The notes beneath the pieces were generated by a model. That model did no database searches and was not told the origin of the DNA. It saw only the letters and a program-made list of their open reading frames with translations. Position numbers and translations under genes: made by a program. From a virus: a stretch of 64,000 nucleotides of DNA. Each line of letters begins with the position of its first letter. Positions within the stretch are counted from its first letter, which is position 1. The stretch spans positions 1-64,000 of the IMG/VR virus record IMGVR_UViG_3300036790_000425. One strand, 5' to 3'. Positions 642-56,628 of this stretch are shown here, one piece after another.

Positions 642-3600
642 CTAGACGCTGATCACGTCATCGTCGTAGTCATCGAGGCTGAGGCCCCGGCGGGCCAGGT
701 CCTCGTCCTCGCCCTCGTAATGCGTGCCCTTGAGGTGCAGCAGGCCGAGATTCCGGGCCCGGGTACCCCGGCCCTCCCCGATCAGCTCCGCGGCCTCCGT
801 CTCGGGCAGCACGTCGGCGGTCTTGGCCAGGTAGGCCCTCGCGGCCCCGGCGATATCCGTCTCGCCGCCCGCCGGCCCGCCGCTGCCGAGCTGCTGCCCG
901 GCGGCCGAGCGCTGGAAGCTGGCCACGATGTCATCCACCGAGCCCTGCGGCTGGCCCGCCGGGACGTCCACCTCGCCGGAGTCAGTGCCGCCGCCAGACC
1001 ACTGCTGGTTGCCGATCGTCTGGATCGAGGGGTCTTCCGGGCCCAGCGCGTCGTCCATCGAGCCCATGCCGGGCTCCCCGGTCGCCAGCTGGGTGCCCTC
1101 GGACGGGTCACCCTGGGCAGCCGCCGCCATGTGCACGCTCGCGCCGTCGTTCATCCCGCAGGCCGGGCAGGTGCCATCCGGCGGGCCGCCGTAAGGGTGC
1201 GGCACGTCCTGAGCGTCCCCGGCGGTACCGTCGATCCCGGCCGCCTGGCGCTGGTCCTCGCCGTCGTCCTCCTCGCCCGTGGTGGACGGAAGCGCGGGCT
1301 CGGGCTCGTCATGCAGCTCCGCGACGAAGCCGTGCGACTGGCCTGCATCCGGCCAGCTGCCCCGGCCGTGGCGCTGCTCGTGGTCGGTCTCGTGGTAGGG
1401 GTGCGGGGTATAGCCCGGCGGCGCCGGGTCGCCCGCCGCCATGCCGCGCTCCACGTTCTCGTGATCGCGGGCATGGCCCTCGTGGTAGAGGGGCAGGCCT
1501 GGCTCGTCAGCCGGGTAGCCGTGGTGCTCGACCATGTGCCGCCGGTAGCTCTCGGCGTCATCAGCCGGGCTCAGCGACCCGTCCATGCGGATGCCCTGCG
1601 GGTCGGCCGGGCTCATCCCGGTCGCAGGACCGGCGGTGCCGGACCGGTCGGTCCAGGCGAAGGTGCCCTGGTTCTCCTGGTCCGCGATCGAGGGAACGTT
1701 CAGGCCGGGCGGCAGCGGATCCGGGGCCCCGGGGGCGAGCACCTCATGGGCCGCCAGCGCGGCAGCGTTGGACAGCGGCATCTGGATGAAGCTGGAGTCG
1801 TCGATCGCGCCCCAGTTGTCGGGGTCCGGCCCGGCCAGCGGGCCGTAGCTGCCGGGGTCGGTGTCCGGGTTGGGCGGCTCGGTGGCGCCGTAAGGCTGCG
1901 CGGGCGGGTGCCTGGTGACGTTCTCGCTGCCCCAGGGACCGTTTGCCTGGTCGGCGGTGACGCAGATGCTGGCCAGGGCGGCCAGGGCCAGCACGTCCCC
2001 GAGATCCTCCCCGGCGGCGATCAGGGCAGCGACCGCGCGCTTCACCGGGGGCTCCGCCGTGCCGCTCGCCCGGGTCCACATCTCCGGGTGGCTGTCGTGC
2101 GGGTAGGCCATCGGGTTCCACTTCACCGGGGTATGCGCGCCCCGGCCCTTCGAGCCCTCCAGGTTCTCCTCCGCGTGCATCGCCTCGTCGAACGGCGCGA
2201 AGTACTTGTGCCAGCCCTTGTCCGGGTGCATGTGGTGCGTGTTTACCTCGGGGTGCGGCTCCTCGTAGGCCGACCACCAGGAGTTGCCCTGGTCGGTCCG
2301 GATGCCATGGCTGATCCAGCCGTCCGCCGCCTTCGCCTTCGAGTACAGGTGGTCCATCAGGGCGGAGGCCACGCCCTTGCCGGAGACGCGGCTGTGCAGC
2401 ATGCCCACGGCGTGCGCCCGGCCGTCGTCGCTCTGCGAGTAGTGCAGCCGCCCGGCGGTCTTCCCGTCCAGGTGCGCGGTGATGACGTGACTGGCCAGGT
2501 ACTTAGGCGCCAGCGGGTGATCGCGGGGGAAGTCCGGGTCATGGTCGGGGTTCCCGGTGTCGGTGATCTCCAGCCCCGACGGCCGCGGGTGGTGCAGCGA
2601 CCGGCCGGTAACCTCCAGCTCCCCGGACGGGCAGTCACCGTCATGCTCGTAGTAGCACTCGACCGGGCGGTGCTGGAGCGCCGACAGCATGTGATGATGC
2701 GGCCTGCCGGGGGTGAACTGACCGCCCAGCGGATGCTCACCGAAGAACTCGTCCCGCGACGGGCCGCCCCAGCCGATTCCCTCGCCCGGCCGGTCGTAGC
2801 CGCCGTGATCATCCACGGAATGCGGCACGAACTTGTCCGGATAGGCCCGGTCCACGGCGCTCGGGCCGTGGTGCTGGTGACCCTGCTCGCCGCTGTGGTC
2901 GTGGTGCTCGGCCTCATGGAAGACGGCCATCTCGGTCTCGCCCGCGGTGTCCAGGTGGCCGGCCAGCCCGTGGTGGCTCTCCAGGTGCCTGCGCAGCTCG
3001 TAGTCCTCGGGCTCGCGGGCATAGGGCAGCGCCCCGGCGCGCTTCGAGGCCAGCGGGGCGGTCCAGGTCTGCGCCCAGCCGCCGGGGGTCCAGGGCGGCA
3101 TCGACTTGACCACGACCTGGTGCGCGCCCGCCGGGTCGTCCTCGCTGACCCCCTGGCCTGTGCGCGTGCGCGACAGGGACTCGAACTGGAGCGCCATGAC
3201 GTGGCTGCACGGCCGGCCGGCGTAGCGGGTGCCGATCCCCTTGTCCTGGTGGAAGCTGGCCCACGGGCAGCCGCAGGCCCAGTGCTGCATGGACTGCGGG
3301 TGGCCCGGCCGCCGCTGGATGCCGGACTCGTACACATCGTGATCGCCGCCGACCTCCCCGATCACCAGGCCGGGTGAGACATGCGTGATCCTCACCCGGC
3401 CGGACTTGCGGATCCGGGTGGCCTTGCGGCGCACGTCAGCCCAGCTGGCGGTGAACTCGAACCGGAAGCTGGCGCTGTCCTGCGCCGCGGCGAACGCCCC
3501 CAGGTGCACCTCGACGGTCTTGCCGCTATCGTCTCCGTCACTGCCGTCGCTCCCGTCCTCCTCCTGCCCGGGCGGGGCGGACGGGGCCGGCGGGGGCGGC

Positions 3601-5129
3601 GGCGGCCAGACGTTCCCGTGCTGGTCGTGGGTGCCCTGGGTGTAGGCCGTCCCGCCGGAGGTGATGGCCGCGCCGGCCAGCGGCCACTCCTCCGGCGCCT
3701 GGCCGGGCTCCCCGCCCGTGTCCTCGGGGTCCTGGCGCTCGCCCAGGGCATCATCCTCGGGCGGGTCAGCGGGCAGGCCCTCCGGCTTGCTGGACAGCCG
3801 GTGCCGGCGCGTGTAGTCGCTCCACTGCTCCGGGTCCAGGACCTGGCCGGGCCTGCTGGCGGACAGCTCGTCAGCAGAGGCCGGGCGCTCGTGCCCCGGC
3901 TGGCCCGGGTCGAACGGCACCGTCAGCGCCTGGTGCGCGTGGCTGGCCAGGCCGGCGTCGTGGATGGCGTCATGCATGTCGGAGACCCGGTCACCCCGGG
4001 CGGTAACTCGCTCGACGCCGGGCGGGGCCCAGCCGTGCTGCTGGATCAGGTGCCTCGCCCAGTACTCCTCGCTGGCGGCCTCGTGCCGCGCGGCCTCGCG
4101 GACCTGGCGCTCCGCGGACTCCAGCTCCTGCGACTCCGGCTCGTCGATCACCGGGTGCCGGTTGGTGAACTCAGTGGACGGCACGAAGTCGCCCCGGGTC
4201 GCGGCAGCGCCGTTGTCCCAGTCGTGCAGGTCTCCGCGCTGCTCCCCGGTCCACGGCACGTGCCGGGCGGTGAAGGCACCGATCTCCAGGCCGGGCCCGC
4301 CGCCGGCGGACATCCCCTCGGGGTACATGCCGACCGTGGCCGCGTTGGCCCTGTTCTTGTCCACGCCGGGCAGCGGCTGGTTCCACCGGTCGTCGCCCTC
4401 GCCCTCGGCGGACTCCTCGTCATAGCCGTCCGGGTCATCAGCGCGCGGGATGGTGCCGTGCTGCGGGGCGTCCCCGGCCTGGTCGATCTCGGTGCCGTTG
4501 ATCGTCGTGGCCCGGGTCCCGCCGATCAGTGCCGATGCCTCCTCGATCTCGGCCAGCCGCGCCATCGGCGGAGACAGCAGGTAGGCAGGCGGCGGGGCCT
4601 CCTCCTGGGGGCCCAGGTTCTGGTGCACCCAGTCCTGCTGGCCTGGCTCTGCCCAGTACAGCCCCGTATCACCCTCGCCTCCGTTGTAGTCCTCGTCCCG
4701 GGCGTCGTCAGGGCGGCCGTAGGTGTCAGCGGCGGTGCGGGAGCCGATCACCCGGATCTCCTGGCCCGGATCGGGCCGGTCGTGCAGGATGCTGCCCATC
4801 TCGGGGTAGTCCAGGTCCGCCGTGCGCAGCTCGGCCTCGATCGCGGCGGCGGTCACCCCGGCCGGGAGGTTGCTGCCCGGGGAGCCGCCCCGGAAGGACT
4901 CGGGCAGCACCCGGAGCTGGCTGGCGGTGTAGGCGCCCTGGCCCATCCCGGAGTCCAGCAGGACCTCGTACTCGCTCACGCCGGGCGCGAAGGCCTGCGA
5001 CACGAACAGGATGCGGCCGGGCAGGCCGTCGATGGTCATGACCCGGACCTGCGGGGCCAGCCCCTGGTCCGGTCCGGCGATCCCGGCGGTGATGCCCCGG
5101 GTCGCGTGCCTCACGGTGCGCCGCGCCAT
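642..5129 (-). CDS. 1495-aa probable head-associated multidomain protein: SWIM Zn finger, GNAT acetyltransferase domain, three His-motif repeats, acidic low-complexity linkers
   Basis: GGAGG before ATG 5129; WACGCPW...RPCSH (SWIM CxC..CxH); SRVSGKGVASALMDHLY (GNAT motif A); lies downstream of the portal. Confidence 0.8.
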   Translation of the reverse strand: MARRTVRHATRGITAGIAGPDQGLAPQVRVMTIDGLPGRILFVSQAFAPGVSEYEVLLDSGMGQGAYTASQLRVLPESFRGGSPGSNLPAGVTAAAIEAELRTADLDYPEMGSILHDRPDPGQEIRVIGSRTAADTYGRPDDARDEDYNGGEGDTGLYWAEPGQQDWVHQNLGPQEEAPPPAYLLSPPMARLAEIEEASALIGGTRATTINGTEIDQAGDAPQHGTIPRADDPDGYDEESAEGEGDDRWNQPLPGVDKNRANAATVGMYPEGMSAGGGPGLEIGAFTARHVPWTGEQRGDLHDWDNGAAATRGDFVPSTEFTNRHPVIDEPESQELESAERQVREAARHEAASEEYWARHLIQQHGWAPPGVERVTARGDRVSDMHDAIHDAGLASHAHQALTVPFDPGQPGHERPASADELSASRPGQVLDPEQWSDYTRRHRLSSKPEGLPADPPEDDALGERQDPEDTGGEPGQAPEEWPLAGAAITSGGTAYTQGTHDQHGNVWPPPPPPAPSAPPGQEEDGSDGSDGDDSGKTVEVHLGAFAAAQDSASFRFEFTASWADVRRKATRIRKSGRVRITHVSPGLVIGEVGGDHDVYESGIQRRPGHPQSMQHWACGCPWASFHQDKGIGTRYAGRPCSHVMALQFESLSRTRTGQGVSEDDPAGAHQVVVKSMPPWTPGGWAQTWTAPLASKRAGALPYAREPEDYELRRHLESHHGLAGHLDTAGETEMAVFHEAEHHDHSGEQGHQHHGPSAVDRAYPDKFVPHSVDDHGGYDRPGEGIGWGGPSRDEFFGEHPLGGQFTPGRPHHHMLSALQHRPVECYYEHDGDCPSGELEVTGRSLHHPRPSGLEITDTGNPDHDPDFPRDHPLAPKYLASHVITAHLDGKTAGRLHYSQSDDGRAHAVGMLHSRVSGKGVASALMDHLYSKAKAADGWISHGIRTDQGNSWWSAYEEPHPEVNTHHMHPDKGWHKYFAPFDEAMHAEENLEGSKGRGAHTPVKWNPMAYPHDSHPEMWTRASGTAEPPVKRAVAALIAAGEDLGDVLALAALASICVTADQANGPWGSENVTRHPPAQPYGATEPPNPDTDPGSYGPLAGPDPDNWGAIDDSSFIQMPLSNAAALAAHEVLAPGAPDPLPPGLNVPSIADQENQGTFAWTDRSGTAGPATGMSPADPQGIRMDGSLSPADDAESYRRHMVEHHGYPADEPGLPLYHEGHARDHENVERGMAAGDPAPPGYTPHPYHETDHEQRHGRGSWPDAGQSHGFVAELHDEPEPALPSTTGEEDDGEDQRQAAGIDGTAGDAQDVPHPYGGPPDGTCPACGMNDGASVHMAAAAQGDPSEGTQLATGEPGMGSMDDALGPEDPSIQTIGNQQWSGGGTDSGEVDVPAGQPQGSVDDIVASFQRSAAGQQLGSGGPAGGETDIAGAARAYLAKTADVLPETEAAELIGEGRGTRARNLGLLHLKGTHYEGEDEDLARRGLSLDDYDDDVISV

Positions 5130-5189
5130 GTCGCCTCCTCCCTCCTTCCGTGGCGGACAGATCGCGGCGGTGCAACGTCCGGAACTGGC

Positions 5190-5408: not shown

Positions 5409-5409
5409 C

Positions 5410-9823: not shown

Positions 9824-10030
9824 TCAGCGGACAGCTGAGGGGAACGCGACCGACAGCCACACCCGGTAGGCCGCGTCGGCCTGCTCCTGGACCGCGTAGG
9901 CCTTCCCGTACAGCAGCCCGGCGGTGCCGTCGGTGCGGGCCACCCCGTTCTGCATCCGGAACTGCCGCCACAGCTCCCCGGCCTCCTGGGCCAGCGCGAA
10001 GTAGGCCTCCCAGGCGGCCTCAGCGTCCAC
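9824..10030 (-). CDS. Small helical protein
   Basis: GTG start overlapping the portal end. Confidence 0.55.
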   Translation of the reverse strand: MDAEAAWEAYFALAQEAGELWRQFRMQNGVARTDGTAGLLYGKAYAVQEQADAAYRVWLSVAFPSAVR

Positions 10031-12299
10031 CGGGGGCGACCTCGTAGTCCAGCAGCTCGGTGCTGTCGGCGGTGACGCCCAGGTGCCGCCGGATGCCGAC
10101 ATGCGCCGGGGTGTCGTAGGCGCGGATGACCGGGCCGGAGAACCAGGTGTTCTTGGTGTCAGCAGCCAGCCGCTGGGTCTCCGGCGCGTGGGCCTCGATC
10201 ACGAAGCCCTCGACGACGTCGGCGCTCTCGGCGGCGGCAGCGGCCTCCAGCCGGGCGGTGCGGTCGCCCTCCTCGCGGGCCTCGTCCACGGCGCGGGCCA
10301 GGCGGGCCTCGGACCGCACCCGGGCCGAGCGCCGGTACAGCGCGCCCTGGCGGGACATCAGCGGCTCGCGCCGGGCGGCGGCCACCGGCATGCCGTCGCG
10401 CTCCTCGTCGCTCTCCGGCGGCCTGCTCGCCATCTCGGCCTCCATGTCTCCCTCGGGATCGCCCTCAGGCGGCGCGTCGGGATCAGCCTCCGGGTCCTCG
10501 CCCGCCATCATGTCCTCAGGCGTGGGAGCCAGGTCCGGGAGGCTCGGCGGAACGACCCCGGCGCGCTCGATCATCACCTGCTCCTGGGCGATCGCGGGCG
10601 GCACGCCCTCCTGCTGGGCGAACGCGGCGAAGTCGGCCTGGAGGTCCTGCGGGACGGGCAGGCCCTCGGTCATCAGCTTCAGGTAGGCCATCCGGCGGGT
10701 CCGGGACTGGGCCAGGATGTCCTCCACGGCCTCGGCCTGGCTGCGCTCGCGCTCCTCGTCCAGGTCGAAGCCCAGCCCGCGGGTCCGGGTCCGGGCCGAG
10801 ATCGGGATGCCGCTGGCCCGCAGCGCCTCGGTGAACTGCCGGGTGGTGTCCTCGTCCCGGAAGTTGAGCACCGAGAACCGGAGGTCGGGGACCAGCAGCG
10901 CGGGCTGCTCGGTGATCCGCCGCTCGCCGGTCTCCTCGTCGATCTCCAGGACCTCCTCCATCTTCACGAACCGGCGGCCGTCGCGCTCCTCGTAGTCGTA
11001 GTGCTCCTGGGCCTCGGCCACGATCAGGGCGCGCTGCCGGAAGTGCCGCATCAGGTACTTCTGGTAGCGGGTCATGAGCTGCTCGACCAGCTGCTTGTTC
11101 AGCGCGTCGGCGGCGTAGGTCTGGCCTTCCTGGGCGCCCATCAGGAACGTCCGGGACAGCCCGAAGACCTGGAGCACCCGGTCCTCGATCCGCTCGAAGT
11201 CGGGAGTCAGGTCGGGCATGTTCTCGCGGCCGAAGACCGGCTGGATGTCCACCGCGAAGTTGTGGATCAGCGCCCGGAAGTCGCCCGCCAGCGCGGCATC
11301 GAGCGCCAGCTCGAAGTTCTCCAGGTCGTCATCGGTGGGGATCCACGGGACGCTGGTGCCCAGGTCGGTGGCGGAGGCGCCGAGCTTGCACAGGATCAGC
11401 GGCGTGTAGAGCCGGTCCGCGATCGAGTCCAGGGCGGTGTTCAGCATCTCCTGCTGGAGCATCGAGCGCATGGCCCGGGTAAGCAGCGGCAGGCCGCGGA
11501 GGCTGAAGGTGTCGCCCTTGAAGCGCAGCTGCTTCAGCAGCACGTTGCTGACGGGCATGTAGGCATTCTCGGCCGTGTAGGCGGCCAGCTCGGGATACTC
11601 CTGGACCAGCTTGGCGTACTCCCAGGCCGGCTGGCGGGTGGTCAGGATCTGCCGGATCGTCCAGGGCAGCCGGATGAAGTACCGGGGCTCCTTCAGGAAC
11701 GGGCTGCGCTCGACCTTGATGTCATCGGGGTTGAGCAGCTCCTCGTCATCCCAGACGCCCAGGTCCTCGTTGAACGTGGCGAACGGCCACGCCTCCCCGG
11801 CCGTGTAGTACTCCCGGCCGATGTCGATCATGAACTCCTCGTAGTCCAGGCCGTCCTCGTCGAAGAACAGCCCGGTGTAGAACTCCTCCAGCCGGGCGTC
11901 CTTGCATTCGAGGTGCGCGCCGACCACGGGAAACTTCGAGAAGATGTCCACGCACGAGCCCACGATGGGGTCGGTCTGGTAGAGCAGCCGGCAGAACGCC
12001 CGGACCTTGGCCAGCTCCTCGTTCTCGGAGAAGTCATAGGGCAGGTTGTTCTGCCGCCAGTAGAACAGCGGGTCCCGGGGGCGGCCGGTGGCGAACTGGA
12101 TGTCGGAGAAGCCGCCCCCGGCGCCGCCGTAGCCCGAGCCCGCGGTCCGCGACATCCGGGCCTGGCGGGCGTTCACCCGGCGGTTCTTGCGAGCCTCGGT
12201 GACCTCGGGGCTCATCTGGTCCTCGCGCAGCCCGCGGGCCCCGAGGCCGCGGGCGAGCATGGCGCGCTCCTGCCCGGCAGGCTTGTAGACAACCCTCAT
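10020..12299 (-). CDS. Portal protein (759 aa)
   Basis: RDPLFYWRQNNLPYD...CRLLYQTDPIVGSCVDIFSKFP, LRGLPLLTRAMR, LILCKLG resemble large-actinophage portals; same module as TerL. Confidence 0.8.
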   Translation of the reverse strand: MRVVYKPAGQERAMLARGLGARGLREDQMSPEVTEARKNRRVNARQARMSRTAGSGYGGAGGGFSDIQFATGRPRDPLFYWRQNNLPYDFSENEELAKVRAFCRLLYQTDPIVGSCVDIFSKFPVVGAHLECKDARLEEFYTGLFFDEDGLDYEEFMIDIGREYYTAGEAWPFATFNEDLGVWDDEELLNPDDIKVERSPFLKEPRYFIRLPWTIRQILTTRQPAWEYAKLVQEYPELAAYTAENAYMPVSNVLLKQLRFKGDTFSLRGLPLLTRAMRSMLQQEMLNTALDSIADRLYTPLILCKLGASATDLGTSVPWIPTDDDLENFELALDAALAGDFRALIHNFAVDIQPVFGRENMPDLTPDFERIEDRVLQVFGLSRTFLMGAQEGQTYAADALNKQLVEQLMTRYQKYLMRHFRQRALIVAEAQEHYDYEERDGRRFVKMEEVLEIDEETGERRITEQPALLVPDLRFSVLNFRDEDTTRQFTEALRASGIPISARTRTRGLGFDLDEERERSQAEAVEDILAQSRTRRMAYLKLMTEGLPVPQDLQADFAAFAQQEGVPPAIAQEQVMIERAGVVPPSLPDLAPTPEDMMAGEDPEADPDAPPEGDPEGDMEAEMASRPPESDEERDGMPVAAARREPLMSRQGALYRRSARVRSEARLARAVDEAREEGDRTARLEAAAAAESADVVEGFVIEAHAPETQRLAADTKNTWFSGPVIRAYDTPAHVGIRRHLGVTADSTELLDYEVAPGGR

Positions 12300-45300: not shown

Positions 45301-45781
45301 CGTTGTTCGGGTCCACCGTCTGGTCGATCTGCGGCAGCCCGCTGGCGCCCTGGTGCAGGTAGCCGACGTAGCCCAGGAACTCGCGCTCGGCGGCCGGGGC
45401 CTTCGAGCCGTAGGCCGACGCCAGGGTGTGCGCCCGGCCGCGGGCCTGGAGGCCCAGCTCCTCGCCGTCCTGCCGCACGGCCGGGTCCAGGGCGCGGTAC
45501 CAGACGGCGGCCTCGGAGACCATCGCGACCCGGAAGTCACCCTCGCCGGGGTCCCGGAAGTCGGCCAGCCAGTCGGTAGCCGCGGTGTGCAGCTCGTGCG
45601 CGGTGCGGGGCTCCATCCGGTGCGCCACGATCTCGGCGCCCAGGTCGGTCTCCCGGCCGGCGGCGGCGCTGGCCGCTGCCTGCCGGTCGAAGGTCTCCAG
45701 GGCGGCCACGGCGCGGGTCAGCCGCAGGCCGTTATCGCGGGACTGCTGGATCTCGCGCACCAGGGCGCTGCGGTCAGTCAT
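42362..45781 (-). CDS. 1139-aa probable head-associated modular protein
   Basis: GAGGG RBS; small modules ALPGGKLPIENKGDLENA and PFAGYADFQSC..DPDAYCG recalled from phage head proteins; Zn ribbon CPKC/CNDC. Confidence 0.75.
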   Translation of the reverse strand: MTDRSALVREIQQSRDNGLRLTRAVAALETFDRQAAASAAAGRETDLGAEIVAHRMEPRTAHELHTAATDWLADFRDPGEGDFRVAMVSEAAVWYRALDPAVRQDGEELGLQARGRAHTLASAYGSKAPAAEREFLGYVGYLHQGASGLPQIDQTVDPNNAPSQTPYPTEVFPTFGEEQDQFNQVEDNNHGSQISSDGAPLIQQVEQQNGGGSGFGSGPEKPDEHSTGFDTSNSYAEVPLGQPGTLPTAPAATDSAGSSAPNPVAGQPQDAGADRRQAARIEGYSAPDPFGYRWLTTGEVMHPFHEKCASAHWPEEGCTGGSEHTASVAIGYAMDLDTARRLAGLEELGAREGRRAVQGVRSLDELGARHNRVTAGWGASDRTAEDTAVLHGFMAVVRPVLARDFTRDERAAAEKKGDALPGGKLPIENKGDLENAERLKGKVKGVPRSEVDSYVDRKEHEFGKSGRRLDFSRAAEAALTKGAPFAGYADFQSCIRVNQDKDDPDAYCGAIRHQAEGASREAAVPSPACPKCHSKNVKLSRGDGKNQIHCNDCGNDQAYGQPAEIMHHHGASGLDQVQQVTDPNNAPAPQDDDLPEGVAFPLSEAWTQQWTTGPQGAVPAGGKQQVQAAGLTGLPEAHARIFGNMDALDGKKPYHKDDYPWSARSHGAYLRSYNGVHAATYSGTPMTRESYGEMTGRPDLFPHWQDARDQAQKARSVRATASARTAADSGTGGSPEEPHCTDCGHKPGCDCPHKCVYGERTDLHGQRTARVVRADTMTAPHATTDDAAPPFNTPATAPDPASSNAMPQDADYAAGAAAGRADKAAGERPAFADNSSGVSPYVKGYAAEYGAAQAPSGPQDVPASIGGDSGQAMNDTEAQRAFQVAKASRVSDAFVPAQLHDDPDFRKGYGFASAWVPRVALVTTGSAAFEAGLYAGITDRPEIQDRWLAWHAIRADEHPELGRRVALHRSFSRKTGYRNEGLRAQGAYLVRRAGTSTDLITDGPGTSPDPMGATPLNGPGQPPPMGGLDEAATPGGPGPYQGAPPLPGGPVVPDDVLGKPQRPEQKDGPFTNTFSGDHPENATLAPVAPNTANQEGYSNPDAYAGDPHGSDRMAVFRARVQASLSSGLGAGLISGEAGS

Positions 45782-48785: not shown

Positions 48786-48822
48786 ACTGCCTCCGCTGTC
48801 AGGTTCCTAGCTATCCGCCAGG

Positions 48823-48844
48823 ATAGTACAGGAACCCGGAGCTA
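48823..48844 (-). promoter_or_regulatory. Possible degenerate 16th copy of the element (18 bp) with -10 TACTAT
   Basis: TAGCTCCGGGTTCCTG-TACTAT. Confidence 0.35.
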
Positions 48845-51800
48845 TTCGAGCGTGTCCTGACCGCCGCGCCGCAGGAACTCCATCGTGGCCGACACCTTCG
48901 CCGCCGGCAGGCCGCACCGCTCACAGGAGTCCGCGGCTGCCACCTTGTCCAGGCCGCCCGTCCCGCCGGTCGGGATCTCCTGCTTGTTCTTCAGGTCCCA
49001 GATCGCGATCTGATTATGGTGCTGCGCCATCCTGGTCGCCCCCTCCAGGCCGTGAACGTTGTGAGAGATGTCCAGGAACACATTCCCCGACTCATGATCA
49101 TGCCACGTCCCGAGATGCGCCCCGGGCTGCGCGAAGTGGCTGGCATGTCCCTGGATATAACTGCGCAGGACGTGATGTCCCTGCGGTCCGAAGAACTCGT
49201 GCGCCGGCAGGAAGTGGCTGCCCTCCTGCTGAGCCACCATGTAGCCGCCCGACGGGGACCGGCCCGAGGTCAGGCTTACAGAATGACCGCCGTTGCGGTG
49301 CGTCCGGTCGATGATCCGGTGCATATCCCGGAAGGAGCTGGTCGGCTCCCTGCTGCGCGCCTCAGTCCTGATCCCGGCGCCCAGCGGGAAGCGCACCACC
49401 TGGTCGCCGCGCTTCACGTGCAGGTGCGTGAACGACACCTGGCGGGCCGGGTGCGACGGCGGGACCGGGTCGCCGTCCTCCAGGTAGGCCAGGGTGACGT
49501 GCGGCCGGTAGTCCTGGTGCTCGCTCGCGCTCAGGTCCTCCAGCTCGCGGCGCAGCTGGCTGATGCCGGGCACGTAGGCCGGGACGAAGACCGGGGTCTT
49601 CCCGTCACTGGCCTCGCTCGGCGGGAAGGTGCCCGTGCCGCGCAGCACGCCGTGCAGCGGCTTCGAGCGGGCCCCTGCCTCGGCCGCCCGCTGCATGGCG
49701 GTGCCGAACGCCTCGTCGCTCAGCCCCTTGCCCAGGTAGACCACCGTGATGTGGGGCTCGTCGTCCACCCCGCCCGGGACCCGCTCGATCAGGCCCTCCG
49801 GGATCGGCAGGTAGATCATCCCGCTGCGGGGCGCTACGTCGTAGCCGGCTACGCCCTCGCGAGGCTCAAGTTTCGTTGACTCTTGCTCTTGAACATCCAA
49901 GGAAACCCCGCCTGCACTTGAATGATCGCGCCGGACTGATGCCGACTTGCGAACGTTGTCCCAGGACTTGGCGAAGGCCGGGTGCAGGTCCAGGTGCTTC
50001 ACCTCTCGCGGCGCGAACCAGCCGGCCCCGGCGATCTCGTGATCGGTCTCGCCCCGGCCGCGCGGGGTGAACAGCTCCGGCGAGTCGTAAGAGACGGTGT
50101 GGAACTTCCAGTCACCGCAGTCGGTGGACACGGTCGTGGACCGGTGGCTGGTGCCGCGCGGCAGCGCGCCCATCTCCTCCCGGAACTCCCGCAGCGCGCC
50201 GTCCTCGGGGCTCTCGTCCTTCCCCCTCGCGCCGGACGGGATTGACCAGGTGTCCGGGTGATCCACGGCCGGGCTGCGCTTCTGAAGCAGGTAGCGGACC
50301 TGGCCGTCCTCGCCCTTGTGGCGCATCAGCAGGCCCGCCGCGCCGTACGCGCCCCAGTGCTCATGACCCTTCGAGCAGGTGACCATCCGGTCGCCGTCCG
50401 AGCCAGAGGCCACGCGCACGGCGGACGGCCTGATCTCGTTATACCCGGTCATGCCACCAGTTCGAGGTGTTCCCGGATATAGGCCACCGTCAGCTCGAAC
50501 AGCACCGGATCGTCCCCGAGATTCCGTACTCGGAAGTTGCATCCCACGCACAGCAGCTTGCGCTTCTTGCCCGTGACGTGGTTGTGGTCCACGCACAGGC
50601 TGATCCGATCCGAAGCCCCTGCCTCGATCGGGCAGATCGCACACTTGCCGCCCTGGGCGGCCAGCATCTCCTCGTACTCCTCGATGGTGATGCCGTAGGT
50701 CCGCTTCAGGTAGACGTTGCGCACGTACCTGGCCCTGCCACCCTTGCGCTCCATCATCCGGGCCTGAGCCGCAGCCTGGTGAATCGTCGCGCACGGCGGG
50801 CAGTAGCTCCCCCTGAACGTGGCGCGGGTGCCCTCCGTCCCGCATGTGGCGCACCACCTCGGGGTCTGGTCGGTCCGGTACCGCTTCATGCGCTCGACCT
50901 GCTGAGTGCTGCGGCACTTCTTGCACACGCCCCGGAAGTAGCCCTTCGGTCCGGCCTTCTTGCCGGGCGGAGTCCAATCGAAATGATCCTGGTCCTGCGG
51001 CTTGGTCTCGTGGCAGCGAGTGCAGGTCTTGGTGTCCATAGCCACTAATGTTACCCGGAGAAACATTGCCGGGGCCGGACGCGCCGGGCTCAGAGAAGAC
51101 GAGTTTCCTGATCTTCTCCAAAATCCTATCAGGACTATAGGAAAGCCATTTCTCGATCAGGTTGCCAGCGTCCTGCCAGCCGTCGCCCTCGTCACTGAAG
51201 GCCCGGCGGCGCTCAGCGTGCAGCCGCTCCCACAGGGCCCTGGCCTGCCGGGTGCGGGCGGGCTCGGCCTGGCGCAGGATGGCCCGGGCCTCGGTGGCCA
51301 CGGCACGGGCCTGGGACAGGATCGCGGGATCGAAATCGGCGGCCGAGTGCGCCGGCAGGTGCGGCGGCCGGACCGCCCACTTCGAGTCGCTGAGATCCCA
51401 GGCCGCGTAGGGCTTGATCCGCCGGATATCCCAGGCACCCGGGTTGACGTAGCCGGTCAGGTCAAAGTGACCGCCGCAGTCCGGGTGCCAGTCCGGGTCG
51501 TTGAAGTGCCTGCGCAGGACATCATTCAGCGCCGCGTCAATCGCGGCATCACCCTTCTTCGGCCAGCCGACTGCACGGTTCCAGTTCCAGGCCTCGTAAT
51601 CCACGCCGATCAGGATGTCCAGGTCCGTGGCCGCGTCGTTGGGACGGCCGCCGGCCCACTCGCTGGCGCTGCCGCCGGCCAGGTAGACCTTCAGGTACTC
51701 TTGCCACTCCGAGCCAGTCAGGCCGCCGTCTACGCGCAGCGCCCGGTCCAGCCGCTCCATGATGTCGTGGCGCACGGCCGGGCGCAGCTCGTGACGGCTG

Positions 51801-51877
51801 TTGAACAGCACCGGGTCAAGCCCGCTGGTCGGCCCGAAAATGCCGCTGGACGGCAGGTACCGGGCTGCCTCGGTCAC
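48842..51877 (-). CDS. 1011-aa ORF: Pol-beta-type nucleotidyltransferase, linker, NUDIX hydrolase, 2H phosphoesterase, C-terminal domain; internal ATG 50452 can give a 536-aa NUDIX-2H product
   Basis: GGSAS...DLDI; Nudix box GARGKDESPEDGALREFREEMG; HIT...HVT; GTGA-coupled start. Confidence 0.8.
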   Translation of the reverse strand: MTEAARYLPSSGIFGPTSGLDPVLFNSRHELRPAVRHDIMERLDRALRVDGGLTGSEWQEYLKVYLAGGSASEWAGGRPNDAATDLDILIGVDYEAWNWNRAVGWPKKGDAAIDAALNDVLRRHFNDPDWHPDCGGHFDLTGYVNPGAWDIRRIKPYAAWDLSDSKWAVRPPHLPAHSAADFDPAILSQARAVATEARAILRQAEPARTRQARALWERLHAERRRAFSDEGDGWQDAGNLIEKWLSYSPDRILEKIRKLVFSEPGASGPGNVSPGNISGYGHQDLHSLPRDQAAGPGSFRLDSARQEGRTEGLLPGRVQEVPQHSAGRAHEAVPDRPDPEVVRHMRDGGHPRHVQGELLPAVRDDSPGCGSGPDDGAQGWQGQVRAQRLPEADLRHHHRGVRGDAGRPGRQVCDLPDRGRGFGSDQPVRGPQPRHGQEAQAAVRGMQLPSTESRGRSGAVRADGGLYPGTPRTGGMTGYNEIRPSAVRVASGSDGDRMVTCSKGHEHWGAYGAAGLLMRHKGEDGQVRYLLQKRSPAVDHPDTWSIPSGARGKDESPEDGALREFREEMGALPRGTSHRSTTVSTDCGDWKFHTVSYDSPELFTPRGRGETDHEIAGAGWFAPREVKHLDLHPAFAKSWDNVRKSASVRRDHSSAGGVSLDVQEQESTKLEPREGVAGYDVAPRSGMIYLPIPEGLIERVPGGVDDEPHITVVYLGKGLSDEAFGTAMQRAAEAGARSKPLHGVLRGTGTFPPSEASDGKTPVFVPAYVPGISQLRRELEDLSASEHQDYRPHVTLAYLEDGDPVPPSHPARQVSFTHLHVKRGDQVVRFPLGAGIRTEARSREPTSSFRDMHRIIDRTHRNGGHSVSLTSGRSPSGGYMVAQQEGSHFLPAHEFFGPQGHHVLRSYIQGHASHFAQPGAHLGTWHDHESGNVFLDISHNVHGLEGATRMAQHHNQIAIWDLKNKQEIPTGGTGGLDKVAAADSCERCGLPAAKVSATMEFLRRGGQDTLE
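50449..51039 (-). CDS. Endonuclease VII-family (homing-type) endonuclease nested out of frame in 48842..51877
   Basis: YGITIEEYEEMLAAQGGKCAIC...VDHNH.TG..RKLLC..CN; N-terminal CxxC ribbons. Confidence 0.9.
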   Translation of the reverse strand: MDTKTCTRCHETKPQDQDHFDWTPPGKKAGPKGYFRGVCKKCRSTQQVERMKRYRTDQTPRWCATCGTEGTRATFRGSYCPPCATIHQAAAQARMMERKGGRARYVRNVYLKRTYGITIEEYEEMLAAQGGKCAICPIEAGASDRISLCVDHNHVTGKKRKLLCVGCNFRVRNLGDDPVLFELTVAYIREHLELVA

Positions 51878-54800
51878 GCCGTCAGCGCCTTGCGCTCGGG
51901 TTCGGTCCACGCACCTTCCGTGCTGCGCAGGATCTCTGCTGCCTCGTCCGCGGTGCCGGCCAGGTGACCGGACATCTGCCGCAGCAGGTCCGGCATGCTC
52001 TCCGCGAGCGGCAGGTGCTCGCACCTGGCCGCCAGCGTCCCCAGGGCGGCCGACACGATCCGCAGGGCGCCGGGTACCTCGTGCAGCATGGACACGACAT
52101 CCTCGGCGCTCTGGGGCTGGTAGGACGCGATCCGCATCGGCATGTCCCGCAGCGCCCGGGCGACCGACACCGGCTGCGCCTTCTCAGGCAGACTCGCCGC
52201 GGCGGCAGCCTCGTGCACCTGGTGGATGAAGCTGGCCGGCAGGGGCTCGCGCAGCGCGTGCACGGTGCCCTCCGTGGCCTCCCGTGGCTCGCTGAGGTAG
52301 CGCGAGACCTGGTCCCGGGGCACGTGGATCTCCACGACGCGCGGGCTCGTCCAGTCCCGCTGCCCGGCGATCAGGGCGGCGCCGTCCCGGCTGGTGGTCA
52401 CCGTGGGCTGGTCCGGGGACTGGGCCGGACGCAGGCCGCCGGACTGGATGCCGGCGGTGTCGTCGTGGTGCGCGCCGTGGTAAAGCACGTAGGGATCAGC
52501 GGGCTGACCCAGTGCGGCCTCATGATCGCCCCAGCCCTCGTCCTCCTCGTCATACCGGGACTCGATGTGCTCCGGGACCGGCATCTCGCGGTGCACGCCG
52601 AACCCGGTCCGGCTGCGCACGTCGCCTGGGTTCACCCGGCGCGAGTTTCCTCCCTCGTCATGAGTCGGGTCCTTCTCGACGTCGTCGGCATGCGGGGTGA
52701 CCTCGAAAACCCTGGGCCGGCCGCCGTGCGCCTCCGCCGCGCGCTCGGCGTAGTCCCAGGCGCTGCCCGGGTCCGCCGTGGCGAAAGCGTGCGTGCCGTC
52801 GTGATCCTGCGGGAAGTTCCGCCGCCCGCTGCCCTGCGGGGTGATCTGATCCGGATCGCCGCTGTCGTTCGTGCCGTGGTAGTAGGGTCCCCGGGCCGGC
52901 TCACCGCGCTTGCCCCGGTCCAGGGCATCCATGTCCCGGCGGAAATTGCGATCATGCTCGCCCTCGCTGGCGTCGAACATGCCGTAGCAGTGCTGGCACA
53001 CAGCCGGGCTCCGGCCGCCGCCCTCGCCGTGGTCACCCGGGCCAGGCGGCCGGAACCGGCGGCTGCCGCAGTCCGGGCAGGCGGCATCCTCGTGCGGGAC
53101 GGCCGGCTCCAGCGCGGCGGTGCGCTTCTGCTTCTCCAGGGCGCGCAGGCCCTTCCGGTAGGGCTCGTAGACGGAATCCGTCTCGTCGTTCACCCAGCTG
53201 TAGCTCTCCGGGCCGTTCCGGTCGTCGCGCATGTAGCGGGCGGAGCCGTGCCAGGGCTCGTGCACGGCCAGCATCTGCCGGGGGTGCACGTCACCGCGCA
53301 TGATCACGTGGTGGTGGCCCTCGCCCCACTCCCTCAGCTTGCCCTGGTCGTAGCTGCCGTCCTTATTGCGGGCATGCCAGGGTGACTCGGCGTTGCCGGA
53401 GATCTCATCCGGGTGGGCGTGGTACTCCACGACAGCCGCATGCCCTGAGTGATCATCCAGGATGTCGTCCGGGCGCTTAGTGGAGGCCCACACGCCGGCC
53501 GACGGGTCATCCAGGTTGTGGTCCCCGGCATCGCCCCGGGCGCGGCTGCGCTGGAGTCCGTGCTGCCGGATCGAGTCCACGTTGTCCAGCGGGGTGTAGT
53601 GCCAGAGCCGGACGCGCCCGGCCGGGATCTCGGCGGTGCCGGGATCGGCCGGCAGCTCATCTCGGCTGTGCAAGGCGCCCTCCTTCGGGATGCCGACGTC
53701 GGTATAGTTCACCGTGCCGTGCTGACCTGGCCGGTGGCTGACCGGGACGTGGCGGTCCACCGGATGCCACGTCCAGCCCGGCGGGTTGTGCTCGGGGTGC
53801 AGGGGGTGCACCGTGCCCTCCTTGCCGGGCTCGCCCACCCAGGCCCCCTCCACGTGCACCGAGGAGCCGGGGTGCAGCCGGACCTCCGCCTCCGACGGCA
53901 GCGACTCGTGCCTGCCGCGCCACATCGGGTGCGAGCGGGAGATGGCCTGGGACTCCGGGTGCTCCAGCCGGGACTGCCACACCACCGGCCGGGTGCTCGG
54001 GCCGCCCCGTTCGGGGCCGGTGATAACGCCCTCCGGCTTCGCGCTCCAGTGCATGCCGAGCGAGCGGGTGCCGGAGATGTCCTCGCCGGCCGGGCGGCGC
54101 TCGCCGCGCCACAGCCGCAGGCCCGGCTCGGGCCTGCTGGCCACGTCCAGCATCTTCCTGCTGTAATCCCGGTCATCGGCAGCCGCCAGGCCCTCGCGCT
54201 GGGAGTCGATCATCGGCGGCAGGTGGCTCAGGTCCGGCGGCCGGTGCGGGCTCAGGCCGCTGCCGGGGAAGTCCCGGGACAGGCCGCGCCCGTGCCGGTC
54301 GTTGGCTACCTGGATCTTGGCATCGGTGTAGTGACGGCGGGCCAGCGCCGCGGCGTCCTCATGCCCGGCACCGTCCAGGGCCAGGGCGTAGTGCCAGGTG
54401 AAGCCCCGGCCGTGGCGCCGCTCGTCCGGGTCCTTGTCGCTCGGCCGCGGGTGCCTGTCCCAGGACTCCCGGGGCCGGGCCTCCTCCAGCGCCTGCCGCT
54501 TATCGGTCATGACGTGCGCGGCATGATGAGCCAGCTCATGGATGCTGCCGTGCTCCGGGGCCACGGCGGAGTCGATGTCCTCGCGCGGCATGAAGAAGCT
54601 GGCCTGACCGAGCATCTTCCGCAGCGTGCCGGTGCGGTCCTCCGGAGCCTGGCCCAGGTGCGGGTGCTCCTGGCTGACTTTCGCCTCGACGGCGGCGTGC
54701 ACTGCGCGGTTGGGCTCGGCAGCGACGTGATCAGCCACAGCGGTGCGGCGGACCCGGGGGAGCGGGATCTGGCTGCGCGTGGCCGCGTACCCCTCCGCTG

Positions 54801-56628
54801 AGGCGTGCCACTTGTCGTCCGGGTGATAGTCGATCTCCAGGGTGTGACCGCGCACGCCCGTCTCGCCCTGGTGGCGCCAGCGCTCATCCGGGGCAGCCGA
54901 GGCCCGGGTGTAGCCGCCGCGTGACTGGAGGTACCCGTTGTGCTGGGCGTCATCCCATTCACCCGGATCAGCAACCCGGTAGAGCTTGCTGACCGGCTTG
55001 CCGCTCAGAGTCAGGCCGCCCTCCGGATGCTGCTCGATCCGGCCGCCGTATAGCTCCCCGGGCGAGGGGAGGATGCTCCCGGGCCGGGGCAGCGCAGGCC
55101 CTGAGAGCGCCCGGGAGAGACGCTCCTCGGACTCCCTCCTCTGGCTGTCGTCAGCGGCTGCTGCGACGTGCTCACCGCTCTCGGCCTCGAAGTGCGCCAC
55201 GACGGCCGCCTGATGCTCGCCGCTGACGAAGTGCTCCGGCTTCAGGTCCGAGGCGCGGACGGTGTAGAACTTCTCCGTGCCGCCGCCGAACGAGTCGTTC
55301 TCGGTGGCCAGGTGCCGGGGCACCCGGACATGCACGGCCTCCGGACCGTAGCCGCCGCCGTAGAAGCCGTGCGGGACGTCCGAGAAGAACACCGGGCCCT
55401 GCTTGCCGTGCTGGTCGATCATCCGGCGCTGGCTGCGGATCGCGGCGGCGTTCTCCGGCGTGGTGTGGTGGTACAGGTCCACCTGATCAGCGGCACCCTC
55501 GTGGCGCGTCGGCTCATCATCGTCGTCGCGGTGCATCTCCTGGCACTCCGGGCAGTTGCGGGGCTGGTCGCTCTCGCGCGAGGTGTCGGCCACCACGCCC
55601 TCCATCGAGGACTTGCCCGTCAGCCGGGCCCGGGCATACCGGTGGTGGCCGTCAAGCAGGTAGGTCCTGCCCTCATGGCGGACGAACCGGGCCGGCTCCT
55701 CGTCGTAGGGGCGCCCCGTCTCGTGCTCGTAGCGGTCCACGAGCTGCTTATCGTGCATCGTGTCGGCGTGCACGAAGGGCTGGTGAACGTGGATCTGCTG
55801 CCTCAGCGAGACGCGCTCAGGAGCCATGTGACGCCAGTGGTCCTCCTGCTGGTCCAGGTCGTCCGGCCAGCCGTGGTGCTCCAGCCGGGGGATCTCGTGC
55901 GGCTCGACGTGCGGGCCCCAGGAGTGCGGGAAGTGCACCACGCCGTTCTCGTCAGCGCGGCGGTTCACCCAGTCGCTGATCCGGTCCTCGCGGCGCTCCC
56001 GGGCGGCAGGGGAGGCAGTCTCGTAGCCAGCCCCGAAATGGTCCATGAGACCGCCGGTCACCTCGCGGATCACCCGGAGCGGGTGCTCGCTGTAGTGGCT
56101 CCGGGGATTCCACCGGTCCGGCTTGTGCTCGCCGGTCGGCTCGACCTCGAACACCCGGGCGTGCTCCGGCGGCCTGCCCTGCTCGCGCGCCGCCTGGCTG
56201 GCAACGTCCCGGGCCCAGCCCGGGCTCTCAGTGAAGAAGGTCTCCTCGCTCGGGCCCTCCCAGCCGCGGTCCAGGGCGCGGGGCATCCCCGTGGTCACCA
56301 TGTCGTCAGGCTGGAACGGGTGCGTGGTGCCGTGATAGAAACGCGGCCCGGTACCGGCCTCGAAATGCTCCAGGACGCCGGAGCGCCAGTGCTTGCGGCG
56401 GGGCTGGGGCTGGCCGGGGCAGTGCGGGTCGCGGGCGCCCTTATCGGTGGTGCCGGTGCCGCCGCAGCGCCCGCAGGACGAGCCGTCGCCGTGCTCGCCC
56501 GTGCCGCCGCAGCAGGAGCAGGACTCCTGGCCCCGGCCGGGGCGGGCGGCGGCGCTCATGCCCCTTACATTAGCAAGGTTTCCTGTAACAGGCGAGAGCG
56601 GAGCGAAGTGCGCCAGCAGCGGGTCCAT
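51874..56628 (-). CDS. 1584-aa polyvalent protein: about 7 ADP-ribosyltransferase-like domains (two Arr-like), ParB-like domain, HExxH peptidase, Zn fingers
   Basis: FYHGT, LYHHT, LYRV, LWRGE..EAE, LWHYT, YYHGT, LYHGA; LLDGHHR; HELAH; AGGAGG RBS. Confidence 0.85.
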   Translation of the reverse strand: MDPLLAHFAPLSPVTGNLANVRGMSAAARPGRGQESCSCCGGTGEHGDGSSCGRCGGTGTTDKGARDPHCPGQPQPRRKHWRSGVLEHFEAGTGPRFYHGTTHPFQPDDMVTTGMPRALDRGWEGPSEETFFTESPGWARDVASQAAREQGRPPEHARVFEVEPTGEHKPDRWNPRSHYSEHPLRVIREVTGGLMDHFGAGYETASPAARERREDRISDWVNRRADENGVVHFPHSWGPHVEPHEIPRLEHHGWPDDLDQQEDHWRHMAPERVSLRQQIHVHQPFVHADTMHDKQLVDRYEHETGRPYDEEPARFVRHEGRTYLLDGHHRYARARLTGKSSMEGVVADTSRESDQPRNCPECQEMHRDDDDEPTRHEGAADQVDLYHHTTPENAAAIRSQRRMIDQHGKQGPVFFSDVPHGFYGGGYGPEAVHVRVPRHLATENDSFGGGTEKFYTVRASDLKPEHFVSGEHQAAVVAHFEAESGEHVAAAADDSQRRESEERLSRALSGPALPRPGSILPSPGELYGGRIEQHPEGGLTLSGKPVSKLYRVADPGEWDDAQHNGYLQSRGGYTRASAAPDERWRHQGETGVRGHTLEIDYHPDDKWHASAEGYAATRSQIPLPRVRRTAVADHVAAEPNRAVHAAVEAKVSQEHPHLGQAPEDRTGTLRKMLGQASFFMPREDIDSAVAPEHGSIHELAHHAAHVMTDKRQALEEARPRESWDRHPRPSDKDPDERRHGRGFTWHYALALDGAGHEDAAALARRHYTDAKIQVANDRHGRGLSRDFPGSGLSPHRPPDLSHLPPMIDSQREGLAAADDRDYSRKMLDVASRPEPGLRLWRGERRPAGEDISGTRSLGMHWSAKPEGVITGPERGGPSTRPVVWQSRLEHPESQAISRSHPMWRGRHESLPSEAEVRLHPGSSVHVEGAWVGEPGKEGTVHPLHPEHNPPGWTWHPVDRHVPVSHRPGQHGTVNYTDVGIPKEGALHSRDELPADPGTAEIPAGRVRLWHYTPLDNVDSIRQHGLQRSRARGDAGDHNLDDPSAGVWASTKRPDDILDDHSGHAAVVEYHAHPDEISGNAESPWHARNKDGSYDQGKLREWGEGHHHVIMRGDVHPRQMLAVHEPWHGSARYMRDDRNGPESYSWVNDETDSVYEPYRKGLRALEKQKRTAALEPAVPHEDAACPDCGSRRFRPPGPGDHGEGGGRSPAVCQHCYGMFDASEGEHDRNFRRDMDALDRGKRGEPARGPYYHGTNDSGDPDQITPQGSGRRNFPQDHDGTHAFATADPGSAWDYAERAAEAHGGRPRVFEVTPHADDVEKDPTHDEGGNSRRVNPGDVRSRTGFGVHREMPVPEHIESRYDEEDEGWGDHEAALGQPADPYVLYHGAHHDDTAGIQSGGLRPAQSPDQPTVTTSRDGAALIAGQRDWTSPRVVEIHVPRDQVSRYLSEPREATEGTVHALREPLPASFIHQVHEAAAAASLPEKAQPVSVARALRDMPMRIASYQPQSAEDVVSMLHEVPGALRIVSAALGTLAARCEHLPLAESMPDLLRQMSGHLAGTADEAAEILRSTEGAWTEPERKALTA
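56567..56595 (-). promoter_or_regulatory. Intragenic promoter with 17-bp element (orientation A); in-frame ATG 56559 lies 7 nt after the -10
   Basis: GTTACAGGAAACCTTGC-TAATGT-AAGGGGC-ATG. Confidence 0.7.

Follow-up and report, generated by a model that had tools for sequence, protein, structure and literature searches.

How are the modules of giant phage proteins joined to one another, and are they ever set free? This question is raised by a window of 64,000 nucleotides (bases 1-64000 of the IMG/VR virus record IMGVR_UViG_3300036790_000425, a single contig of 162,435 bp and ~71% GC from a soil actinophage), in which three very large proteins, here called A (642-5129), B (42362-45781) and D (51874-56628), each occupy one coherent reading frame. 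Genes were called with a codon-usage model; third codon positions are >90% G/C. The initial annotation had noticed tetrapeptides of the form [HKR]-x-[AG]-[AS] at the domain boundaries of these proteins, of one further open reading frame (ORF) and in the portal termini, and proposed that they punctuate head polyproteins as cleavage sites of a maturation protease. All the tetrapeptides that it named were found in their places (Table 1). In favor of its proposal, the protease could be located, the tag stands at three canonical maturation sites, and modules swap while the tag stays; on the other hand, the regular expression turned out to be too loose, the sites at the portal C-terminus are not conserved, and one of the supposed polyproteins holds a nuclease in another frame. 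Judging from the sequence patterns set out below, we consider it probable that the tag is the code by which the capsid-maturation protease cleaves modular cargo polyproteins.

No protease had been recognized in the window, since the gene lies outside it, two genes from the major capsid gene (Table 1). The N-terminal ~215 amino acids (aa) of its product match phrog_18299, annotated as 'head maturation protease' (1.1e-19), and phrog_2774 covers aa 28-211 (1.4e-54). An AlphaFold2 (AF2) model based on 12 relatives (predicted local distance difference test score, pLDDT, 69.5) was compared with 48,161 chains using VIA-align, and the best match was T4 gp21 (5jbl_A; Z 7.8, root-mean-square deviation 3.4, 123 aa aligned), followed by the proteases of varicella-zoster virus (1vzv_A; Z 6.6) and human cytomegalovirus (HCMV; Z 5.1). 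The Foldseek list was weak (E ~0.1) and consisted mostly of herpesvirus proteases plus T4 gp21. As these scores are middling, we take a gp21/assemblin-like fold as probable, not proven. Across 12 diverse relatives, the residues H79, H84, S137 (within RTSMG) and H163 do not vary, and the Ser-to-His spacing of 26 resembles the 25 of the HCMV protease.

We compared the protease and capsid genes across 80 IMG/VR loci anchored on the capsid gene. The protease domain ends in FFENSLLVE.PADPTA...RGL, after which comes K-A-A-[S/A], often [K/R]-T-A-[A/S], and then wholly unrelated modules. Of 37 unique sequences, 30 have a tag in the first 30 aa behind the domain, versus 17% of shuffled ones, with the logo [K>R>H]-[A/S/T]-A-[S/A]; the site of this phage is RSAS (aa 226). 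Towards the other end of the protein, [R>K]-[A/T/S/Q]-A-[A/S] stands ~35-45 aa before the scaffold-like C-terminus (37 of 42 sequences versus 8% shuffled), often with a second copy ~12 aa earlier, and the tail downstream of it is conserved as PSLASVG...DDxDxSDLF; here the tail site reads RTAT, then HYAS. The third site is in the capsid protein, whose leader varies in length and sequence among the non-redundant relatives from 79 loci and without exception closes with [R/K]-[V/I]-A-[S/A/K/R], immediately ahead of the conserved KSDDYV core. From residue 28, directly behind RVAS, and no earlier, the protein is homologous to cluster C capsid proteins. The cultured mycobacteriophage ScoobyDoobyDoo has the corresponding elements: its protease domain is followed by RKTAG, RTAS stands 20 aa short of the C-terminus, and the capsid leader has GRFA with K after the presumed cut. 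Between its two ends the protease polyprotein carries RTAA (aa 445) directly before DUF7178 and KTAA (aa 939) before the C-terminal coiled-coil part. A codon-frame anomaly was also seen at genome positions 155500-156080 (aa ~200-400 of this polyprotein), in a stretch flanked by RSAS (226) and RTAA (445).

These positions, after the protease, before the scaffold tail and at the end of the capsid leader, are in our view the strongest evidence for cleavage that sequence comparison provides. The same placement bears on the view that a different enzyme cuts the tag, either an embedded zincin-type metallopeptidase module or a host protease after ejection. Relatives do carry HExxH modules such as WDYGTxAHEAAH, D itself has a HELAH module, and autoproteolytic processing of polyvalent proteins by embedded metallopeptidases has been argued by Iyer et al (PMC5512222). 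However, the tag is also present on the protease-scaffold protein and on the capsid leader, which are classic maturation-protease substrates, and an HExxH module is not found in every tagged protein or relative. We regard cutting by such another protease as distinctly unlikely.

A Glu-specific code of the T4/phiKZ type (x-x-E, cut after Glu) was excluded for the capsid leader, as the leaders of many relatives (e.g. MSQMSLAGSGLRGRVAKKSDDY) contain no Glu before the conserved core; the scaffold tail site is also without Glu. The capsid protein of phage G, a homologue of the Bxz1, Myrna and E3 capsid proteins, loses 27 residues according to N-terminal sequencing (PMC5646251). In this protein (gp27, L154 3926-4144), a distant homologue of the capsid protein studied here (28.7% identity), residue count puts the mature N-terminus after EEGRVALA and before QAM. 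Phage G thus shares GRVA with this clade, and an Ala at P1 is suggested.

The specificity of the motif was assessed against per-protein shuffles that keep composition. In the four big proteins the broad regular expression [HKR]-x-[AG]-[AS] occurred 40 times versus 28.0 expected (1.43-fold; nominal p 0.012 for a motif chosen post hoc), and in all other proteins of the genome 217 times versus 200.5 expected (1.08-fold). We then defined module borders in the D family as clusters of the ends of BLAST high-scoring segment pairs (HSPs) among 20 relatives. Within 10 aa of these borders, enrichment was 1.54-fold for the broad expression and 1.63-fold for a plain 'AA', as compared to 1.0- to 1.3-fold for charge-swapped, reversed and hydrophobic control motifs, 2.6-fold for [HKR]TAA and 2.9-fold for HF[EGAT]A. 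Enrichment at borders and over other ORFs, which the initial annotation had named as the check on its idea, was therefore found for narrow forms of the motif, whereas the broad form did no better than 'AA'. It follows that many individual hits are due to chance, in line with the caution already voiced there; the broad expression mostly catches Ala-rich linkers plus a real core.

The core is visible in several data sets. The five modular head proteins contain six [HKR]TAA (0.6 expected) and the other 41,494 aa two (4.9 expected), and seven of the eight sites in the whole proteome fall in head or polyvalent proteins. HF[EG]A occurs three times in the modular proteins versus 0, and [HKR]-x-A-[AS] 39 times versus 18.7 expected, the rest of the proteome having 125 versus 114. 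An unbiased gapped k-mer scan of 20 D-family proteins returned as top strings YH.T/YHG, which correspond to repeated ADP-ribosyltransferase (ART) modules, together with L..HF, L.HF, HF.A, H.AA (88 versus 26 expected), TAA (63 versus 16 expected), KTA and K.AA. Among 97 A-family proteins, including that of this phage, KTAA, RTAA and HTAA were enriched 13-, 6.8- and 5-fold, respectively. Downstream of the terminase, related IMG/VR contigs carry 11 additional long ORFs that have no more than scattered modules in common with D, and in these [HKR]TAA was counted 16 times versus ~1.2 expected. Two joint peptides could be drawn from these contexts, namely [K/R/H]-[T/Q/E/V]-A-[A/S] and hydrophobic-hydrophobic-x-H-F-[E/G]-A (LLxHF[E/G]A); the latter tolerates E at position 3 (HFEA).

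An obvious concern is that a genome of 71% GC encodes linkers rich in Ala, Gly and His, which would by chance make such a motif frequent at borders, as the modest 1.43-fold excess of the broad expression and its failure to outdo 'AA' would lead one to expect; these proteins also contain 3-7% His, versus 2.1% elsewhere. Yet the shuffles keep composition and still leave [HKR]TAA enriched ~10-fold and HF[EG]A >20-fold, the reversed and charge-swapped controls show no enrichment at borders, and site-specific conservation reaches 81-88% versus 8-17% in shuffled segments. A composition artefact is thereby largely refuted for the narrow motif and holds for many single hits of the broad one; as an explanation of the tag we find it highly improbable.

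Next, we considered the module starts. Six modules were tracked (the zinc ribbon RPGRG..CxCC, NUDIX DGDRxVTC, nucleotidyltransferase (NTase)-like GIFGPT, 2H SGMIxL, EPNRAV and YHGT ART), and a tag was located at most 28 aa upstream in 51 of 79 non-redundant contexts, versus ~16% after shuffling segments; for EPNRAV this was the case in all nine non-redundant modules, and all five NUDIX contexts were tagged. The form of the tag varies before one and the same module. In different proteins the zinc ribbon is preceded by HFEA, HEAA, RTAA or HEGA, the NUDIX module by HTAA, RQAS, HFAS, RTAS or HFGS in relatives and RVAS here, and the NTase-like module by KTAA, HTAA, RTAA or RAAA in relatives. This exchange suggests that the two joint peptide types are functionally equivalent, and it speaks both against a flank co-inherited with the module and against a signal at the DNA level. 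A DNA-level recombination signal, like VENN in CdiA, was judged unlikely, since the variable forms before one module (HFEA, RTAA, HEAA) share no nucleotide string.

It could also be that the tag is not cut at all and acts as a short linear motif or structural cap, as a peptide that docks to the scaffold, the portal or the inside of the capsid, or as a linker that travels with the N-terminal flank of a module. Modules that bring their own flank would yield the same association with module starts, LLxHF[E/G]A stands at the extreme N-terminus of many D-like proteins as a targeting peptide would, and some tags are invariant within conserved blocks (HTAA 65 and HTAS 324 of B). Against this, a flank that is simply co-inherited would not present differing tag versions before one module, and the placement at the three canonical sites is the signature of processing sites and not of docking. 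We consider an uncut tag unlikely, and return to the cleavage reading with the individual proteins.

D lies directly downstream of the large terminase gene. It contains an Arr-type ART at aa 97-191, a ParB-like module with DGHHR, no fewer than four additional ART-like modules of the YHGT type, and the HELAH module. Its 19 modular relatives (900-2670 aa) gave best local alignments covering just 10-26% of D at 50-88% identity, and a tblastn search against cultured phages returned no match. That D starts at 56628 is backed by the sequence MDPLLAHFAP at its N-terminus, which the relative P0002 shares. D-like proteins start with M-x-D-L-L-x-H-F-[E/G/A]-[A/P], and the same peptide appears again at internal joints. 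In D the N-terminal copy is MDPLLAHFAPLS; peptides of this type form the extreme N-terminus of the relatives P0002, P0005 and P0009 and lie near the N-terminus of P0017 and of D-like ORFs in the loci L089, L090 and L093. From its position and sequence, it is a possible candidate for a capsid-targeting and cut tag, resembling the propeptides of the T4 capsid targeting sequence (CTS) kind. Within D, the Pfam Arr domain is flanked by HFEA (88) and HFGA (197), and relatives have GVLEHFEA followed by GYEEASP at the Arr/ParB-like joint. Overall, a tag lies within ~10 aa of six of the eight HSP-end clusters.

For B, an AF2 model based on 48 relatives (mean pLDDT 64) consists of folded blocks joined by long low-confidence linkers, and six of the ten sites matching the broad expression fall within 4 aa of a predicted order/disorder transition (background 0.26, p 0.02; controls 0.2-0.38). 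HQGA (aa 143) is followed by the conserved SGLPQIDQTVDP, the relatives having [HRKSAT]-[QES]-[GA]-A and then SGLPQI. The joint [H/R/K]-[Q/E]-G-A, then S-[S/G]-L-x-Q-[I/V]-[D/Q]-Q, is present in two copies, each after an indel-rich variable stretch. We also observed that it belongs to a longer duplicated element, GA-SGL(P/D)Q(I/V)(D/Q)Q(T/V)(V/T)DPNNAP, at aa 143-175 and 568-600, each right after the tag and strongly conserved in relatives.

A, whose tblastn matches lie within ScoobyDoobyDoo gp89, adjoining the protease gene, corresponds by this homology to the large gene that cluster C mycobacteriophages carry immediately upstream of their protease gene. It has 96 relatives, some with Arr, GNAT or GDSL lipase modules. 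The pattern is kept at RTAA (131), HLGA (542), the R-T-A-x site (697) and RSAA (1407), while the sites at 344, 415 and 1333 are not conserved in the aligned relatives. As in B, alignments place the retained tags beside indel hot spots; in the relative P0036, for instance, ~220 aa are inserted immediately ahead of the tag that precedes xTYGRP, and the joint is kept as [RK]-x-A-[AS]. A further contains two copies of RRH[L/M]x[S/E]HHG (aa 713 and 1196), a zinc finger of the SWIM type (CxC...CxH), and several stretches of poly-His and of Pro. The His content of the products of 642-5129, 48842-50452 and 51874-56628 is 5.5-7.2%, versus 2.1% in the rest of the proteome, and reaches 8.8% in relatives.

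In the portal protein, the three tetrapeptides listed earlier (RTAG, RQGA, RLAA) are present, although RTAG does not fit the broad expression itself. The N-terminal leader of ~70 aa carries a degenerate RQAR and RTAG here, and in relatives RQAS twice and RRTA. The C-terminal RQGA and RLAA are weakly or not conserved, and we rejected them as tag sites for want of a conserved basic-x-small-small pattern.

The ORF at 48842-51877, which had been read as one polyprotein, is not one clean gene. Codon-position GC passes from frame 0 to frame +1 (~51066 to 50449) and back to frame 0, and the +1 stretch is an Endonuclease VII/HNH-type gene across which frame 0 happens to remain open. This nested gene is not part of the polyprotein by design. 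Its stop overlaps the ATG of the NUDIX gene (ATGA). A group I intron around it was rejected, as a search of the window at Rfam gathering thresholds was empty. The host chain may have been read through the nuclease stretch as a junk linker, or restarted after it, and the RVAS just downstream would trim such a read-through linker. In the relatives P0004-P0008, NUDIX, 2H and Arr are fused in a single chain, and GNAT and ParB are also among the fusions of relatives.

The following scheme best accounts for these observations. A, B, D, the NUDIX-2H protein and the protease-scaffold protein are chains of swappable modules, whose joints carry a [K/R/H]-x-A-[A/S] core, with x preferably T, Q, E or V, or HF[E/G]A within LLxHF[E/G]A as an interchangeable variant. 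The protease, an N-terminal domain of putative gp21/assemblin type fused to a scaffold-like protein, would recognize the tag in exposed linkers inside the prohead and cut at or beside Ala. It would thereby free itself and trim both the scaffold tail and the leader of the capsid protein. ADP-ribosyltransferases, NUDIX, 2H phosphoesterase and other enzyme modules would be released as separate cargo and ejected with the DNA. We infer the cutting itself, the exact scissile bond, the role of this protease, and the packaging and ejection of the products.

Several points weigh against this scheme. We found no cleavage or packaging data in the literature searched on Bxz1/Myrna/E3-type phages. The protease gave no meaningful Pfam or PDB sequence match, either as a single sequence or as a profile, and its fold match is middling (Z <8, pLDDT 69.5). 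The conservation counts come from homologous sequences and do not represent independent events. The motif is short, and about one-third of the module starts lack a tag; among the H.AA hits are HExxH metallopeptidase sites and conserved motifs internal to domains (e.g. LAHHAAH, HWNxLLGxHFxADH), and several copies in B, e.g. at aa 33 and 307, lie inside confident folds. Position 4 of the tag varies at the sites in the capsid protein, the portal and the scaffold, the scaffold site of this phage being RTAT, so that the tag does not fix the scissile bond; in phage G the inferred cut is two residues after RVA, not at RVA.

A broader version of the cleavage reading, which we put forward as a tentative possibility, is a plug-in cargo system across the Bxz1/Myrna-like clade. 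Any segment between two [KRH]-x-A-[AS] tags, including new enzymes and, as junk, selfish nuclease genes, would be packaged and freed by a herpesvirus-like protease cutting between Ala and Ser, with M-x-D-L-L-x-H-F-[E/G]-A as the capsid-targeting signal. If so, these phages would have their own counterpart of viral polyprotein processing, and with it a means to evolve arsenals of ejected effectors. If the tag is indeed the cut site, a simple rule would follow for predicting which proteins are present in the mature virion, and which are ejected, in a large actinophage group to which cultured mycobacteriophages of use in teaching and therapy belong. It would also become clear how giant polyvalent proteins turn into separate enzymes, and a natural modular system to load chosen proteins into capsids would be at hand.

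Regarding the genomic setting, the large terminase (56965-59091, minus strand) shows ~31% identity to the terminases of Gordonia, Rhodococcus E3 and cluster C (Bxz1/Myrna-type) mycobacteriophages, a replication block occupies 64-92 kb of the genome, and a tail-sheath and baseplate block 93-121 kb. From this kinship, the portal and the two blocks, we conclude that the genome is that of a complete or nearly complete myovirus-like actinophage, kin to Bxz1/Myrna-type phages. Myrna has a T=16 capsid with a minor capsid protein like that of herpes simplex virus (HSV; PMC7150772). As a minor capsid homologue stands here at the position of Myrna gene 98, a similar (T=16, HSV-like) capsid is suggested by analogy for this phage.

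Table 1. Features of the window and of the capsid region (positions in the window unless marked as genome; tetrapeptide lists are those of the initial annotation).
Feature	Coordinates	Strand	Evidence or remark
Protein A, 1495 aa, conserved core with SWIM-type zinc finger and variable modules	642..5129	-	phrog_30974, phrog_2940
A: RSAA (aa 1407), then Gly-rich variable linker	900..911	-	[RH]-[ST]-A-[AG] in 14/14 aligned relatives
A: RTAA (aa 131), before conserved DTYGRPDDPR	4728..4739	-	alignment
A: listed tetrapeptides RTAA, HEAA, HLGA, RAGA, RQAA, HMAA
Portal protein	10020..12299	-	phrog_2833 3e-135
Protein B, 1139 aa, conserved modular head-region protein	42362..45781	-	88 relatives
B: RTAA (aa 724), end of helix 698-728 and start of low-confidence segment	43601..43612	-	AF2 and alignment
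B: HHGAS (aa 568), second [HRK]-[QE]-G-A/S-[SG]-L-x-Q-V-Q-Q joint	44066..44080	-	in low-pLDDT segment 560-603
B: RQAA (aa 276), end of long linker, 2 aa from order/disorder transition	44945..44956	-	AF2 and alignment
B: HQGA (aa 143), exact end of confident helix and start of 135-aa low-confidence linker	45344..45355	-	AF2 and alignment
B: listed tetrapeptides HQGA, RQAA, HTAS, REAA, HHGA, RTAA
536-aa protein: NUDIX, 2H phosphoesterase, C-terminal module	48842..50452	-	Pfam NUDIX 3.7e-12, 2_5_RNA_ligase2 1.9e-9
RVAS, directly before conserved NUDIX module start GSDGDR..VTCSKGHEHWG	50405..50416	-	tag variants of relatives
Endonuclease VII/HNH-type gene, +1 frame, nested in long open frame	50449..51066	-	Pfam PF02945 5.7e-19
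NTase-like module, N-terminus M-TEAA, then RYLPSSGIFGPT	51100..51877 (lower end approximate)	-	codon-position GC and relatives
ORF 48842-52024: listed tetrapeptides RVAS, KSAS, KVAA
Protein D, 1584-aa polyvalent protein	51874..56628	-	Pfam Arr-ms 3.5e-6, one coherent frame
D: HEAA (aa 1369), 10 aa before LYHGA ART-like module	52513..52524	-	HSP-end cluster aa 1370-1403
D: RTAA (aa 1169)	53113..53124	-	among the 8 [HKR]TAA of the whole proteome
D: KEGA (aa 982), module border	53674..53685	-	HSP-end cluster aa 980-990
D: HVAA (aa 634), directly before EPNRAV module	54718..54729	-	HSP-end cluster aa 624-649
D: triple joint HQAA-VVAHFEA-ESGEHVAA (aa 472-490)	55159..55215	-	HSP-end cluster aa 489-504 directly after
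D: HFGA (aa 197), between Arr module and ParB-like module	56029..56040	-	HSP-end cluster aa 187-193
D: HFEA (aa 88), 6 aa before Arr-type ART module	56356..56367	-	HSP-end cluster aa 58-95
D: N-terminal peptide, copy of LLxHF[E/G/A]A joint peptide	56593..56628	-	sequence comparison
D: listed tetrapeptides HEGA 376, HQAA 472, HVAA 487, RTAV 628, HVAA 634, KEGA 982, RTAA 1169, HEAA 1369, HEAA 1472
Capsid gene	genome 150225-151253		phrog_2522 1e-97
Minor capsid homologue	genome 151293-151928		phrog_2783, position of Myrna gene 98 (minor capsid protein gene)
Protease-scaffold protein, 1234 aa	genome 152975-156679 = L005:8975-12679	-	phrog_18299, phrog_2774

Among known systems, the closest description of the cargo is that of the polyvalent proteins of phages and conjugative elements, with their ART, ParB, GNAT and zincin domains (Iyer, Burroughs, Anand, de Souza, Aravind 2017; PMC5512222). 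The present proteins likewise combine several unrelated effector domains per chain (ART, ParB-like, NUDIX, 2H, GNAT, zincin) in variable order and mosaic architecture, with inserts in A, B and the protease proteins, and are located among virion and packaging genes. The difference is that processing was ascribed there mainly to embedded metallopeptidases, and no shared junction tag tied to a capsid-maturation protease was described (PMC5512222). Polyproteins of picornaviruses and retroviruses are similar in that units are freed at short consensus sites by a virus protease that is itself within the polyprotein; those, however, belong to RNA or retro-viruses and release replicative or structural units, whereas here a dsDNA tailed phage would release presumed accessory cargo enzymes.

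Regarding phage maturation proteases, T4 gp21 processes Alt and internal proteins. T4 gp21, phiKZ gp175 and SPN3US gp245 all resemble the proposed system in that a maturation protease acts on many head-internal substrates (Alt, IPI-III, gp53/54) at a short motif, with an ADP-ribosyltransferase (Alt) among the cargo and with removal of N-terminal targeting propeptides. In giant phages such enzymes cleave numerous head and ejection proteins behind AXE-type motifs, as SPN3US gp245 does at AXE, and all three enzymes cut after Glu (L/I-x-E, S/A/G-x-E, A-x-E; PMC10052503), whereas the tag described here ends in Ala-Ala or Ala-Ser. In addition, the sites here lie between many modules of one chain and not just after an N-terminal propeptide.

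Herpesvirus precursors of the UL26 type consist of protease, R site, scaffold, M site and tail, and are cut between Ala and Ser. The protease-scaffold protein resembles this assemblin precursor (UL26/UL80, MEROPS S21) in having an N-terminal serine protease of probably the same fold class and a scaffold-like C-terminal part, with one site right after the protease, another tens of residues before the tail, and Ala followed by Ser or Ala at the presumed cut. It differs in that it belongs to a bacteriophage, in the basic residue at P3 (K/R/H) instead of the herpesvirus V/L-x-A-S, in the variable cargo modules (DUF7178, zinc ribbons) between protease and scaffold, and in the spread of the tag over several other giant multi-enzyme proteins. 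If the cleavage reading is true, the parallel between herpesviruses and phages would extend from fold and capsid geometry to the layout of the precursor and to its Ala-Ser specificity.

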